From an uncultured Acidobacteriota bacterium (GTDB taxonomy: Bacteria > Acidobacteriota > UBA6911): a stretch of DNA of 64,000 nt. Below are positions 7,921 to 61,137 of the stretch, piece by piece. The stretch is from positions 64,001 through 128,000 of the forward strand of contig CAWEJX010000012.1 of the NCBI GenBank assembly GCA_963809485.1, given 5' to 3'. Made by a program: the position numbers and the translations under genes. Every line of letters begins with the position of its first letter. Positions within the stretch are counted from its first letter, which is position 1. Below the pieces are notes generated by a model. It was not told the DNA's origin. It did not search any database and saw only the letters and a program-made list of their open reading frames with translations.

Positions 7921-9639
7921 TTAATACCTCTCGTAATTCGGTTTGAGATCCTTGTACTTCGCCACCAGCTTGTCCCAATTCTTCGGCAACTCGATCTTTT
8001 TGGTGACAAGCGCGTTCTCGAAAAATCCCGGTCCCGCACTCCTCAGCAGCGCTATAAACGAGCCCGGCCCGCCGGCAACCAGAATCATGAGGCTTTTGTC
8101 GAGGTCCATTTTCGGTGGACTGGCGGCATTCGTAAGACCGACACTCGATCTGCCGGGGGTGCCGTGTGCCGCCAGGTATTCTCTGACTTTCTGCTTCGTG
8201 TATCCTTCACTCGACAATACCTTGGCCCAGGAAGGTATAAGAATCAGACTGGACATGGTGCTGCTAACCATGCCCGAAAGCGTATCCAGAATCCCCTTTG
8301 CGTCCGTCCCGCCCGGGACCGTCTGTATGAATGTGTTGGGGAAAAACACCGTGACGGTGCTGTCCTCCTTTTTGAAGCCCCGCTCGACGCTGAGAGGCTC
8401 CCAGGGGCTCGCCTCTTCATCCTCCCCGATCACAAGGCTGTACTTGCCCGGGTTACCGATCACCCCCATGTCCTCGATGGCCTTCCTTGCCCCCCCGATG
8501 TTCTTGACGATCAGCCCAACGGCCCGGCCGATGGCGGCATTCGCGATATTTCCCGGACTCAAGGCGCCTGAGCTGCAGTTGACGTGGATGTCGTTTCTTA
8601 TCCGACCGTTGATGGCAAGAAAAGGCGCCCACGAACCCGTGCTCACCTCAAAGGTATCAAACCTGGTTTTCGGATCGGCCAAAGCCTGCACCGTGGCGAT
8701 CAGTACCGGCATGTAGGTGGGAAGCGCACCGGCCATCACCGCATTAATCGCGATCTTTTCGATCGTGGCCTTCCCTTTTCTCGGGATGATCGTGGCCACA
8801 ATATGGTCCGGCGGCAGATCCGTCCCCGTCATCATCTCCGCCACGGCCTCCTCGGTCGGCGGTATGATGGGCAGACCGTCGGTCCATCCCTTGCTGTAGT
8901 AGAACCGGTTTACCTCCTGCAGGCTTCCTTTAAATGCGACTCTCGCAGTCTTGCCCGTTTGCTGCTTCGGAGATTTCTCCTCGGCAGTCAGCGGGCTCGT
9001 TAAGGCCTCGACCACATCCTTCATGGCCGCCGCGACACCCTCTTCAATTTCCGCCTTGACGGTGGATTCACATGCCACCGATTCCCCAACGACTCTGATT
9101 CCGGGCATTCCCTTGCTCGATGCTGCCGATTGAGCATCGGTAACAAATCCATGATTAGCCAGTAGCACGACCGGCTTGCCAAAGTCCTCGATCGCTATCC
9201 CGTTGTAGGCGAGGTACTTTGTGCAGGACCCTCAATCACCGACCACGGCAATGGCCGCGTCCAGCCCTTTAGCCCAGGCCGTGAACTTTTCCTTGTTCTT
9301 CGTCTCGATCTCATTGACGTTCGGCTGGGTCGAATGGAACCTGATTATCTGAACGTCGGGGTGCATGGCCCTTAACCTTGTTTCGATTGATTCCGCGATC
9401 GGCATAGCCGCCCGCTTGGAATTGATGAACAATCCGATTTTCTTTCCCGCCAGGGTATGAATCCTCGGGGAAATCCCCCGGAGCGGGATCGGATCAGCGT
9501 CCGCCCAGGGACTGAGAACTTCAAATTGAGTGGCCGGCGACTTGGCTTTGGAACTCGCAGCCCCTTGGGCCCCGGATACATCCTGGACCGTCAGGACGGC
9601 TAGCATCCCTATGGAAAGCGCCGATAAAATTCTACGCAT
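7921..9639 (-). CDS. UGSC-family selenoprotein, fused two-domain form with signal peptide (572 aa; Sec at TGA 9232-9234)
   Basis: ORFs 9232..9639 and 7921..9168 share a frame, joined by AVVGD-[TGA]-GSCTKYLAYNGIAIEDFGKP with no other stop; C-domain motif GWTDGLPIIPPT; hairpin at 9181-9220. Confidence 0.85.
9181..9220 (-). promoter_or_regulatory. Candidate SECIS element
   Basis: AAAGT(A)CCTCG...CGAGGACTTT stem starting 11 nt after the UGA; same outer stem at 60685-60724. Confidence 0.55.
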
Positions 9640-9827
9640 AGCAGACTCCTTCTCCTTTCAAAATGGCTTGGTGCCAATGCGATTATATCCGCAAAACACA
9701 CAAAAGACACATCACAGTATATTCGTGTGGCCGGAGGAGTGATTCATACCCTTCCAGAGTCCCTTGCCTATGAGCCCTAATCAGGGGATCGTTCGCGGGA
9801 AACACCCCTGGTTCTATTATTTGCAGC

Positions 9828-11189
9828 TCAATTTCCTGCCGGACCGGCTCCACGTCCATCACCGGGCCTTCCAACACCAGGCATGCCCAGGCCGCCCATA
9901 CCAAGGCCTCCGACGAACAATTGGTTATATCCCTGGGCGCCCATACCATTCAGCTGCCTTTTCTGCACGTCCGAGATGTCTTTCGCAATCGGCTTTATGC
10001 CTTTTGTATATCGCAACATCGCAATTTTCACCTGGATCGCGGCAACCGCCTCAATCTTCGCATTGACACTTGCCTCAGCCGCATCGTTGGCCAATGCCGA
10101 CTTTATGGCTTCCCTCTGTGCATCTGCCAGTTGTTTGTTGAGGTCGGCGATATCGGACTGCACCGCATCGGTGATCTTTTGGGTCTGAGCCTGGGTTAAG
10201 CCACCCCCCATGCCCGGCATGCCCATGCCAGCGAATCCGCTTACTGGTTCGCCGTTGTATTTCCCGATGGAGGGCGGATGCGTAACCGATCCGACGGGCT
10301 TGAACAACGTCTGCGCGAACAGATAAAGATTATTGTTCCACACGGCGACCTCATGCATCCCGCTGTCGACGTACCAGACGTGGTCGATCTTTGCCTTGAC
10401 CAAGCCCTGGTGGAGATTCCAGCTTCCCGTGATCAGGTTGTCTTTGTCGCCGCAGCCGATCCATAACAGACTCAACTTGTCTTTGGCCCGCTGGATCTTG
10501 GCAACCAGGATATCGGGCTGCTGGAGATTGGGCGCTGAGGAGAAGCCGCCAACCCATGCGAATTTGTCGATGTTGTTAATACCGAAATTGAGGCCCTGTC
10601 CGCCGCCCATGGACAGGCCTGCAAGCGCACGGTAGTCCCGCTCCGACTTCACTGAATAGCGCGATTCAATGTAGGGCATTAAATCCTGCAGCAAATCCTT
10701 CTCAAAGAAGGCATAGTAATTGAAATCCGACATGAAATTGCTCGAAGGGGGATCAGCCGTTGCCCGGCCGTTTGGCATCACAATGATCATGGGCAAGGCT
10801 CTTTTGCCGGCGATGAGGTTGTCGAGGACCTTGTTGGCGGCGCAGAGCGTCGTCCAATGAGTCTCATTGCCGCCGATTCCGTGCATCAGATAGAGGACAG
10901 GGTATTTCTGATTAGGGTCATAATTCGGAGGGGTGTAGACGACGGCTTTGCGGTCGACGCCGATGCTTTTGGAGTTGTACGTAACGGTCTCAAGCCTGCC
11001 TTTCGGAATGTCCGGCCGAACTTGGATGAAGTCGGCGGGCGCGTGATTGGGCAGCACTAAGGTCGCGTCCGCCGTTGCCGGGGCAGTGCCCTGCCCAGCC
11101 GGCAGGGCACCGATCGCCATCTGCACCAATGCCGCCCAGAGCAGGCAGCCAGCCCAAAATTGCCAATGTAACTTGTTTGAACGATTCAT
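9828..11189 (-). CDS. Secreted esterase (CE1-like) with Gly/Met-rich linker and helical C-terminal extension
   Basis: ATG 11189 with GGAGG; signal peptide; [27 protein letters not shown]. Confidence 0.82.
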
Positions 11190-11293
11190 GAAAAACCTCC
11201 GTAAGTAAAATGTCCGTGAAAACACGTGTTGCCACTGCAGATCCGTTGAGCGCACTCAGGACGATGATTTTTGACTAACATCCAAGGCACCGT

Positions 11294-59099: not shown

Positions 59100-59350
59100 C
59101 GGCTCTCCAAAGACTTTCTCAAAACCACTGGCATGAGATCCTCGCCGGCAGTTTTGAGAAAGTCTCTGGAGAGCGGTTTTCACCCCATCAACAGCAACGG
59201 CTGAGTAAATGGCACTTATATATGATTTTTCAGCGTGCGTCAGCGTTTATCGGCGTTAGTCAGCGTTAAAATTTATGCACGGGCTTCCAGAATCGGTATC
59301 AAAACGACTGTCGCGAGATCCTCGCCCCCAGTTTTGACACAGTTTCTCCA
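59100..59350. repeat. Two related palindromic units flanking a TCAGCGT-type repeat
   Basis: GACTTTCTCAAAAC...GAGATCCTCGCC...GTTTTGAGAAAGTC and TCAAAAC...GAGATCCTCGCC...GTTTTGACA between genes. Confidence 0.5.
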
Positions 59351-59460
59351 GGGCCGTCCGGTAAGACTGAATCGCGTCCGCTTATAGATTCAGGTTTTTT
59401 CGCGCTTCGCATCGGGTTGATCCCAATGGCCATAGGTAAAGATCTGTTGGATGCACTGCG

Positions 59461-61137
59461 CTAGTAAATCTCGTAGTTGGGAACAAGAGCTTTATATTTT
59501 GCTACAAGCTTGTCCCAATTGCGGGGAAACTCGATCTTTTTGGTGACGAAGCTGTTTTCGAAACCGCCCGAGCTCTTAAGTGCCGCCATCCAGACGCCAG
59601 ACCCGCCCGAGACGACCACTATGAAATCCTCTTCTTTGAGCGGCGATCGAAATTCGCCCCGAGGCGCGTTTTTCAAAATGAACTCCCTGAGCCTCTTCTT
59701 CGACCACCCTTCGCTTGAAAGAATGCGAGCATGATCGGGGATGACCACCAGGCAGGACAGCGCGTTAGGACCAAAGCTCGCGAGTCTTTCGGCAATTCCC
59801 TGAGCCGTCGTCTGACTGGGGATGGTTTGGGTAAAGCTATTCGGAAAAAGTACAGTCAGCGCGCTGTCCTCTTTTTTCAGGCCGAAGTTGACATGCAGGG
59901 GTTCCCATGGGCTTTCTTCTTCATTCTCCCCGAGCACAAGGGTGTATTTTTGGGGATTGCCCATGACCCCCATGTCCTCGATACCCTTTCTCACCCCAGC
60001 GATGTTCTTGACCATTAGGCCGACGGCGCGCCCAATGGCGGCGTTGGCCATGTTCCCGGGACTGAAAACGCCCGAGCCGCAATTTATATTGAGATCATTG
60101 CGCACCCCGCCGTTGATGATGAAGAAAGGCGCCCACGAACCCGTGCTTGTTTGAAAGACATCGAATCTGGTTTTCGGATCCGCCAGAGCTTGCACCGCCG
60201 CTATCAGCACCGGCATGTAAGTAGGAAGGGCGCCGGCCATGACCGCGTTTACTGCAATTTTCTCAACAGTAGCCTTGCCTAACTTCGGTACCATCTTGGC
60301 CACCACCTGATCGGGCGGCAGGTCCGTCCCGGTCATCATTTCCGCCACCGCCTTTTCGGTTGGCGGCACAACCGGCAGGCCATCGGTCCAGCCCTTACTG
60401 TAGAAGAAATGGGTTACCTCCTGTTGGGTTCCCTTGAAAATGATCCGGGGAGCCTTCGCCGCTTTCGGCTTCGGCGATTTCTCTTCGGGCGTCAGCGGTT
60501 TAGTCAGTGCGGCAATAATTTCCGGCAGAACGGCAGTGATGCCGCCCTCGATATCTGCGGCAACAGTGGATTCACAAGCGATATTTTCAGCCAGGATTCT
60601 GACTCCCGGCATTCCTTTGACAGATGCTGCTGCCTGGGCATCCTTAACGAAACCATAATTCGCCAGTACCACGACCGGCGTGCCAAAGTCCTCGACGGAT
60701 ACTCCGTTGTACGCGAGGTACTTTGTGCAGGACCCTCAGTCACCGACCATGGCAATGACAGCGTCCATACTCTTTACCCAGGCGGCAAATTCATTGCCGT
60801 CTTTCTGTTCTGCCACGATGATGGTCGTCAAACGGGGTTCAAAGAAGCTGAACTCAGCAGTAGTATATTTTTCTTTCAGTTGCTTCGCAATCGCCTCTGC
60901 CATAGGCTTGGCGGCGCGCTTCCTGTTGGTAAACAGCCCGATTTTCTTGCCGGCCAAAGTATCCAGCCGGGGCGCGAGTCCCCTCGGCGGCACTGCATCC
61001 GCTTCCGCCCACGGGCTAAGGACCTCGTATTGATTGTCCGGTGCGGGGCTGGCGAACGGCGTTGGTGAAGGGGCCGTTACTACCAACGTGCAGAGGACAG
61101 TGGTGATCAAAACCGACGCAATTTTATGCATAAGCAC
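59461..61137 (-). CDS. UGSC-family selenoprotein, fused form with signal peptide (558 aa; Sec at TGA 60736-60738)
   Basis: AMVGD-[TGA]-GSCTKYLAYNGVSVEDFGTP in frame with ORF 59461..60672; close paralog of 7921..9639 with the TGA at the same position. Confidence 0.86.
60685..60724 (-). promoter_or_regulatory. Candidate SECIS element
   Basis: AAAGT(A)CCTCG..TAC-AACGGA-GTA..CGAGGACTTT, 11 nt after the UGA. Confidence 0.55.

Follow-up and report, generated by a model that had tools for sequence, protein, structure and literature searches.

Introduction

Since 2007-2008, environmental surveys have ranked UGSC proteins among the most abundant selenoprotein families, and these proteins still lack an assigned function. 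The Global Ocean Sampling (GOS) survey counted 255 UGSC sequences with selenocysteine (Sec, U) against 21 with Cys (PMC2398784), and the figures for UGSC in a 2016 survey that covered more than 5200 genomes are 26 and 33, taken here as organisms and genes (PMC5029168). The prediction from which this study started (hereafter the original prediction) held that no reaction has been assigned to the family; the passages on UGSC in four papers agree, treating UGSC as a family defined by bioinformatics, and give none (PMC13188914, PMC2398784, PMC1976440, PMC9312934). Our literature searches returned no passage in print that describes a UGSC expansion or function. Here, we examine a large family of UGSC-containing genes in a 64,000-nucleotide (nt) stretch of DNA, the window, which comprises positions 64,001 to 128,000 (forward strand) of contig CAWEJX010000012.1 from an uncultured Acidobacteriota bacterium of the UBA6911 lineage (assembly GCA_963809485.1). 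The host is a soil or wetland bacterium.

The GOS paper describes UGSC domains fused to a conserved domain of unknown function, "Unknown_1", also found solo in some aquatic organisms, and suggests a thioredoxin fold for UGSC (PMC2398784). Its passages on the fusion mention no expansion, export signal, thioredoxin reductase (TrxR) linkage, or structure. Like that fusion, the family studied here has both fused and stand-alone forms, and "Unknown_1" is a likely candidate for the same domain as the C-domain described below. The window N-domains share with the UGSC family (PF24696; NF041046) the UxxC motif and a Sec residue that is far commoner than Cys. Unlike the small UGSC proteins, eight of the 11 window loci are fused to a C-domain of about 350 aa, and four N-domains have neither Sec nor Cys.

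PrdB and GrdB (PF07355) resemble the UGSC domain in the succession of a strand, U-x-x-C, a helix, and E-x-x-G-[IV]-P. The grd operons are linked to thioredoxin reductase. Unlike PrdB and GrdB, the family described here has no pyruvoyl-type partner (PrdA, GrdE) that could be identified, and most of its members appear to be exported. A further likeness is to the thioredoxin/TrxR couple, in that a low-Mr CxxC TrxR homologue adjoins a small Se/S dithiol-type redox domain. In contrast to thioredoxin, the redox domain here is predicted to be flavodoxin-like and is usually fused to a large second domain.

Results and Discussion

A Two-Domain UGSC Family Expanded across a Genus

The original prediction listed 11 loci with a UGSC-type N-domain, a conserved C-domain, or both. 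The DNA was retranslated with TGA read as Sec, and the products were aligned to compare all 11 window loci (A to K, Table 1). All are present at the predicted positions. They comprise eight N+C fusions (A, B, C, D, G, H, I, and K), one gene with the N-domain only (F), and two with the C-domain only (E and J). Locus J is a natural deletion derivative of the fusion. The assignment of the N-domain to UGSC is borne out by PF24696, which matches eight of the 10 window proteins scanned with 53-97.6 bits (E 6e-14 to 1.2e-27; gathering cutoff, 25 bits); C-only E and J, as expected, give no match. Locus K was absent from this set and scores 94.2 bits in the genome search, where locus F, at 129.5 bits, is the genome's best. 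Scores of the window copies against the NF041046 equivalog model range from 29.9 to 86.4 bits, under its 125-bit cutoff; by this measure, the window proteins are relatives, not equivalogs, of the small stand-alone UGSC protein. Among the window proteins scanned, the C-domain has no Pfam or NCBIfam match.

An in-frame TGA at one aligned column had been claimed for five loci and is found in A, C, F, I, and K (U-G-[SG]-C), each with a Cys at position +3 (U-x-x-C). At the U position, loci B, D, G, and H show T, S, L, or A in place of Sec or Cys, and their +3 Cys is also gone.

The window covers only part of a larger region, since about 20 family genes lie between 46 and 204 kb on contig C12 alone. 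Across the host genome (6.04 Mb in 21 contigs; estimated 95.7% completeness and 7.3% contamination), PF24696 matches 58 places. Hidden Markov models built from the window copies recover 61 N-domain and 74 C-domain stretches, which correspond to 59 loci and about 64 genes, 47 of them with the N- and C-domains intact in one frame. The predicted eleven-locus expansion is real, but its scale had been missed: it extends to some 60 loci genome-wide and is shared across the genus. All 24 same-genus genomes searched contain it, with 9-45 matches each (35 in a closed 6.9-Mb genome); from other families of the same class, two of 16 genomes have one match each. The paralogues are 23-64% identical to K, and their median terminal branch on a quick IQ-TREE phylogeny is 0.32. 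Judged from this divergence, the paralogues are old and constitute one ancient, diversified family. It is among the largest single-family uses of selenium observed in any genome; in comparison with the 26 and 33 listed for UGSC in the 2016 survey (PMC5029168), this host alone has 44 TGA copies.

Probable Selenocysteine at the In-Frame TGA

We consider it very probable that this is a real Sec-decoded family. The Sec machinery for which the original prediction proposed a check is all present in the host: selA (564.7 bits), selB (391.3 bits), selD (345.5 bits), and tRNA-Sec (70.6 bits) each score over the curated cutoff. The selD gene (G000:C8:80982-81905, +; G000 denotes the host genome) itself has one in-frame TGA, which makes the host selenophosphate synthetase a selenoprotein. 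Besides the clear tRNA-Sec at C19:20948-21042, a second match to the tRNA-Sec model is located at G000:C20:1138408-1138497 (+), with 50.9 bits against a gathering threshold of 47.

Across 57 aligned host N-domains, the Sec column holds 44 TGA codons, no Cys, and 13 other residues. The corresponding column in 80 loci from other genomes holds 84 TGA, five Cys, and three other residues, so that Cys homologues at the TGA position, whose absence the original prediction had counted as refuting, do exist. The motif is conserved to either side of the codon, and the +3 Cys, retained in 92% of the 36 intact Sec copies, vanishes together with Sec. Reassignment of the code is excluded because TGA terminates eight of the 37 window genes. 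Three tandem paralogues at G000:C4:341764-348040 (+) have Sec without the resolving Cys (SWUGAA) and form their own long-branched clade.

The RNA downstream of the codon is also distinctive. In the 44 Sec copies, the 60 nt past the codon have a folding energy of -17.9 kcal/mol, versus -13.9 kcal/mol in 13 non-Sec paralogues (Mann-Whitney p 0.0016). When each copy was compared with 200 synonymous recodings, 43 Sec copies had a mean z of -1.08 (Wilcoxon p 3e-8), whereas 13 non-Sec copies had a mean z of +0.16 (p 0.5); these p-values overstate independence because the copies are related. For the hairpin of locus C, z is -4.03 in this comparison. The hairpins start about 12 nt past the UGA, and their loops open with G (GGUC, GUU, GUGA). 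Statistically, these fold comparisons are as expected of a SECIS-type (selenocysteine insertion sequence) stem-loop, and we refer to the hairpins as candidate SECIS elements. A search of the window at Rfam gathering thresholds returned no family and hence no curated SECIS call.

Structure and Conservation of the Two Domains

Full-length K without its leader was modeled with a predicted local distance difference test (pLDDT) score of 91.8 and a predicted TM-score (pTM) of 0.91. In this model, the N-domain (residues ~26-187) alternates strand and helix five times. It matches only generic flavodoxin/Rossmann-like chains (Foldseek E ~1e-4; VIA Z <=10.3), and there is no thioredoxin-fold chain among the structural matches listed for it. 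Because the generic N-domain filled the fold searches run with the whole model, the C-domain was modeled and searched alone (pLDDT 89.9; pTM 0.91). When aligned with 48,161 representative PDB chains by VIA-align, it matched none at Z >=5. The best match (Z 3.4; root-mean-square deviation (rmsd) 3.0 Å over 79 residues) is well below the typical background quoted by the tool, although a weak match is not proof of a new fold.

The top Foldseek match of the C-domain is class I fumarate hydratase (E 3.9e-4). This lead was rejected (TM 0.26; rmsd 16.6 Å), as were serine dehydratase and barbiturase; VIA Z values were at most 3.1, and no Cys that could hold an Fe-S cluster is conserved in the C-domain. 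A PDB sequence search with profile A1 gave nothing useful (best E 0.15), and a search of the ESM Atlas returned only unannotated clusters with automatic names.

Conservation in the C-domain is concentrated in a few short motifs. The invariant or near-invariant polar and aromatic residues are the Asp of WxDGLP, the Thr of PPT, the Asn of AN, the Arg of IGRA, the Glu of ENE, and the Trp of PW. The hydrophobic VMAG motif is likewise conserved.

Predicted Export

Export was called with a crude hydrophobic-leader rule supplemented by twin-arginine motifs. By this rule, 35 of the 47 intact copies are predicted to be exported, several of them with lipobox-like cysteines. A hydrophobic leader is called in 28 of the 36 intact Sec copies and a twin-arginine motif in two more. 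In the window, leaders are found on A, G, H, I, J, and K and are absent from B, C, D, E, and F, the loci situated inside the block of CoA-transferase, DHDPS-like, and TrxR-like genes.

Neighboring Genes and Distribution

The neighbors named in the original prediction are real by Pfam: four CoA-transferase III genes, a MaoC gene, three DHDPS-like genes, the TrxR-like gene, glycyl-radical enzymes with an activase, and XDH/CODH-type molybdoenzymes. Their recurrence was assessed by blastp of the window genes against the 80 foreign loci, which come from other phyla. The TrxR-like gene recurs in 12 of the 80, CoA-transferase III in four, acyl-CoA dehydrogenase (ACAD) and XDH in three each, and DUF6282 in two. 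The strand is the same in all 12 foreign loci with the TrxR-like gene, which is an immediate neighbor in at least nine of them, lies 3.4 kb off in one, and is unclear in two. Its CxxC is kept in 8/8 clustered members, the window copy (CALCDG) adjoins F, and in locus L051 the fusion beside it has no signal peptide. This CxxC gene is the sole recurrent specific partner. The original prediction named three outcomes that would refute it (a host without Sec machinery, homologues never with Cys, and a neighborhood not conserved elsewhere), and none of the three was observed. Neighborhood conservation is weak apart from the TrxR-like gene.

Three arrangements do recur as groups in other phyla. The order UGSC, DUF6282, C-domain is found again in a Dehalococcoidia locus (L077), and L081 has DUF6282 beside N and C genes. 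A Chloroflexi locus (L078) again has four tandem CoA-transferases beside split C and N genes. A Desulfatiglans metagenome-assembled genome (MAG; L027) repeats the combination of an A-type gene, a PFL-like enzyme, two esterases, and an exported unknown. Much of the set around A is found in this MAG with neighbors up to 71% identical, which suggests from gene content and identity that the cluster moved as a whole between phyla. The exported set around A (window 1953-11255; L027:1-12960) includes an S9-like protein, a SnoaL-like lipoprotein, two esterases of the PF00756 family, and an unknown protein of 311 aa.

In an unsupervised clustering of 118 regions, with antisense open reading frames over the TGA-split genes masked, two further families came out as side observations. 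A cupin-like protein with a twin-arginine signal and without a Pfam match lies beside fusions in 10 of the regions (e.g., L027:7697-8386), and an exported family of about 190 aa lies near fusions in six.

The fusion occurs at no fewer than 597 places in a collection of species-representative genomes, in Acidobacteriota, Desulfatiglans and other Thermodesulfobacteriota, Dehalococcoidia and other Chloroflexota, Burkholderiales, Binatia, Methylomirabilota, Rokubacteria, and Poribacteria. A search based on K returned 5567 proteins at E <= 1e-5. The best 120 of these are 383-429 aa long, cover 69-75% of the query, and are all unnamed or "hypothetical"; the lengths and coverage imply that the public proteins are truncated at the TGA. 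A search with the C-domain profile yields 7445 representatives of 50%-identity clusters at E <= 1e-3, and their lengths point to stand-alone, truncated, and fused forms.

A PrdB-Like Selenoprotein in the Host

The host also has a gene for a PrdB-like (GRDB) selenoprotein, L102:721-2007 (-), which corresponds to G000:C20 ~1215732-1217018 and has its TGA in LLLPA-U-PGC-T. Its public homologues are mostly truncated past the TGA; one is named D-proline reductase PrdB. Homology between UGSC and PrdB is not claimed, since hhalign probabilities of 4.8% against the single PrdB-like protein and 12% against a nine-sequence PrdB-like alignment are too weak for it. None of the 10 window proteins scanned matches PF07355 at E <= 0.01. 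The likeness to PrdB/GrdB is a mechanistic analogy, not a demonstrated homology.

Frame Breaks in This Assembly

Although all of the predicted loci are real, four of them (B, C, E, and F) are each divided between two frames in this assembly, which the original prediction had missed. Over positions 20000-29400, the assembly was compared with Logan contigs from three DNA metagenomes and from a single RNA run (X19). The sole indels reported are single letters missing from every covering run at 22480/1, 27257-61, and 28909/10. These three sites coincide exactly with the breaks of C, E, and F, and X19 covers the site in C. With the extra letter omitted, C becomes an intact cytoplasmic Sec fusion, E a 350-aa C-domain protein, and F a 190-aa UGSC protein. 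Because the breaks are absent from independent contigs, they are probably consensus errors of the assembly, or else specific to the strain. A 4-nt AGAC duplication had been considered as the break in C and was ruled out by the contigs, which show one extra letter.

Other window genes are also frame-split, namely a PFL-like glycyl-radical enzyme (3-1764), two XDH/CODH-type large subunits (44063-45879 and 47176-49591), and an SGL-family gene (40050-41545). Given that three of the three tested breaks are single-letter differences, the assembly probably has indel errors. The breaks at ~12975 (locus B) and ~1287 (the PFL-like gene) both consist of CCC followed by TGA, and in each case shifting the frame by +1 recovers the protein. 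The simple reading is a homopolymer error; alternatively, CCC_UGA may be a shift-prone site in a Sec-decoding organism. X19 metatranscriptome contigs cover parts of C, D, E, and the DUF6282 gene (22377-28380), and one spans the Sec codon of C. They are not counted as expression because the library may contain DNA.

Table 1. Coordinates of the family loci, their Sec codons and downstream hairpins, and selected neighboring features in the window (E values refer to PF24696 unless stated)
Feature	Position	Strand	Description
Locus A	7921-9639	-	signal peptide + UGSC + C-domain; 572 aa; E 1.7e-24
Locus A Sec codon	9232-9234	-	motif GDUGSC
Locus A candidate SECIS	9172-9231	-	60 nt past Sec codon; long stem-loop; minimum free energy -21.0 kcal/mol, z -1.76 vs shuffles
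Locus B	12764-14483	-	UGSC (GFTGTSS, no Sec/Cys) + C-domain; no signal peptide; E 4.6e-18
Locus B frame break	near 12963-13012	-	CCC run beside TGA
Context block	14675-21169	-	four CoA-transferase III genes + one MaoC/FAS1-type dehydratase
Locus C	21036-22758	-	cytoplasmic UGSC (Sec codon 22443-22445, GGUGSC) + C-domain
Locus C extra assembly letter	22480/22481		absent from all four runs
Locus C hairpin	22383-22442	-	60 nt past Sec codon; strongest in window; -28.8 kcal/mol, z -2.47
Locus D	22852-24594	-	intact 580-aa fusion; UGSC without Sec/Cys (MSGGSTT); no signal peptide; E 1.8e-23
Locus E	26810-27863	-	stand-alone C-domain protein, ~350 aa; extra homopolymer letter at 27257-27261
DUF6282 (amidohydrolase-like) gene	27885-28763	-	between F and E; PF19799 E 4.3e-61
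Locus F	28775-29348	-	stand-alone UGSC, ~190 aa; Sec codon 29022-29024, CDUGSC; E 3e-26
Locus F extra assembly letter	28909/28910		
Low-Mr TrxR-like flavoprotein	29354-30274	-	CALCDG redox motif; immediately upstream of F, same strand
Locus G	36377-38218	+	N-terminal membrane anchor/signal + UGSC without Sec/Cys (GQLDTN) + C-domain with an insertion; E 1.4e-16
Locus H	41794-43617	+	signal peptide + UGSC without Sec/Cys (GDAGQA) + C-domain; E 6e-14
Locus I	55390-57177	+	signal peptide or lipobox + UGSC (GDUGGC) + C-domain; E 1.2e-27
Locus I Sec codon	55753-55755	+	following 60 nt fold at -16.9 kcal/mol
Locus J	57515-58957	-	signal peptide + C-domain; N-domain deleted save first strand motif IEVYNP
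Locus K	59461-61137	-	signal peptide + UGSC (GDUGSC) + C-domain; protein used for modeling
Locus K Sec codon	60736-60738	-	following 60 nt fold at -25.2 kcal/mol, z -2.82

Proposed Mechanism and Alternatives

The best overall explanation of these data is that a Se/S redox domain serves a conserved, substrate-binding C-domain. We regard this explanation, and the functional pairing of the two domains on which it turns, as plausible and evenly poised between right and wrong. As modeled, the flavodoxin-like UGSC domain would bear its Sec-x-x-Cys redox pair at a strand end. The C-domain would bind a small, probably carboxylate-bearing substrate in a pocket lined by the invariant residues (Asp, Thr, Asn, Arg, Glu, and Trp). 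By analogy to PrdB/GrdB, the UGSC selenolate could then act on the substrate as a reductant or nucleophile and end as a Se-S bond with the +3 Cys. In the cytoplasmic forms, the TrxR-like CxxC flavoprotein, whose gene is adjacent, may re-reduce this bond with NAD(P)H; the exported majority would have to use some other reductant. The approximately 60 paralogues would be specificity variants, with the Sec-less ones keeping binding or a non-redox activity. No particular chemistry can be named, since most copies look exported, Sec-less paralogues persist, and the PDB searches gave no structural analogue.

The original prediction suggested that the loci are substrate-specific catabolic enzymes rather than generic antioxidants. 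This is partly borne out: the neighbors on which that reading was built exist, but their conservation is weak beyond the TrxR-like gene and no reaction can be assigned; in addition, the export signals on 35 of the 47 intact copies, which had been overlooked, fit a cytoplasmic CoA-ester pathway poorly. That the paralogues are many substrate-specific enzymes is possible but doubtful. We are similarly tentative about the broadest claim, that UGSC plus the C-domain may constitute a new class of Sec-dependent enzymes, with a catalytic C-domain fold outside the PDB, that radiated into dozens of substrate-specific, mostly secreted forms within one acidobacterial genus.

Several observations weigh against a redox domain serving a substrate-binding partner. 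The C-domain has no conserved Cys and no recognizable cofactor motif. All of its invariants are kept equally in 11 non-Sec paralogues, a point absent from the original prediction, and the Sec/non-Sec label changes at least five times on the quick IQ-TREE phylogeny, which indicates that the C-domain works without the redox pair. The exported-looking copies (35/47) would reside where NAD(P)H and TrxR are unavailable, and the TrxR-like gene is missing from 68 of the 80 foreign loci. Neighbors in the 118 clustered regions are diverse and of catabolic or transport type (Opp-type ABC ATPase in 12, SDR in 10, TctC in seven, and SBP_bac_5 in seven). The hhalign match of profile A1 to the nine-sequence PrdB-like alignment, which places Sec on Sec, spans 37 columns with E 0.0024 and a probability of 12%. 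The relatedness of the copies behind the RNA-structure statistics belongs here as well.

The exported copies and the UxxC motif also fit generic thiol-disulfide (selenylsulfide) oxidoreductases of the envelope that would reduce or isomerize disulfides of exported clients, or detoxify peroxides, and in which the C-domain would be a client-binding or chaperone module. Passages in the literature treat UGSC as a likely redox protein (PMC2398784, PMC13188914), and the nearest ESM Atlas clusters are automatically named "thiol-disulfide oxidoreductase family", names that are labels and not tests. However, some 60 paralogues as divergent as these are rarely needed for housekeeping, the N-domain is modeled as flavodoxin-like rather than resembling any thioredoxin-fold chain among its listed matches, the C-domain invariants are retained in Sec-less paralogues, and cytoplasmic members lie inside catabolic operons. 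We therefore judge generic oxidoreductases to be unlikely. Somewhat less likely still are non-catalytic extracytoplasmic solute receptors, comparable to Bug/TctC and other solute-binding proteins (SBP), in which Sec/Cys would be a redox- or metal-sensitive switch. A large, lineage-specific, mostly exported expansion with repeated loss of the redox pair would be natural for receptors, and the Opp-type, TctC, and SBP_bac_5 neighbors noted above point the same way. Yet no transporter gene is present among the window genes scanned, 12 of the 47 copies are cytoplasmic, and the TrxR linkage together with costly Sec in 44 copies argues for chemistry, as does an invariant Asp/Glu/Arg/Asn set that would resemble an active site.

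A role in binding or transforming metals or metalloids (Hg, As, Se, Te, Cu), for which the Sec/Cys pair would be the ligand, strikes us as improbable. Several prokaryotic selenoproteins with a U/C pair have been proposed as metal ligands (PMC13188914), most of the proteins here look exported, and the tandem SWUGAA triplet has Sec without the +3 Cys; on the other side, mer, ars, and cop genes are absent from the window genes and the recurrent neighbors, and the linkage is instead to the TrxR-like gene and acyl-CoA enzymes. It is hardly credible that the TGAs are ordinary stops and the loci split genes, pseudogenes, or assembly artifacts. The frame breaks in four of the 11 loci and several neighboring genes, the contamination estimated for this MAG (7.3%), and public gene calls that begin after the TGA and give 403-428-aa proteins would be consistent with such an origin. 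Against it, a single column holds TGA in 44 copies of the host and 84 foreign ones, and five homologues have Cys there; the motif is kept to either side, the Sec machinery is present, and the downstream RNA is more structured than synonymous recodings. The three tested frame breaks are absent from independent contigs, and the expansion is also found in the closed same-genus genome.

Implications

For the UGSC family, our studies add a defined two-domain architecture with natural split forms, a confidently predicted model for a partner domain without a solved analogue, and a recurrent TrxR-like partner that provides an assayable candidate electron donor. A genus with 9-58 copies per genome offers statistical power for comparative and expression studies. 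Most copies are predicted to be exported; this is atypical of selenoproteins and would call for an extracytoplasmic reductant. Standard annotation cuts almost every member at the TGA. If the Sec assignment is true, the host has at least 46 selenoprotein genes (44 of this family, SelD, and the PrdB-like protein) and could approach or pass the largest bacterial selenoproteomes published, which are given as 57 and 63 genes (PMC13188914).

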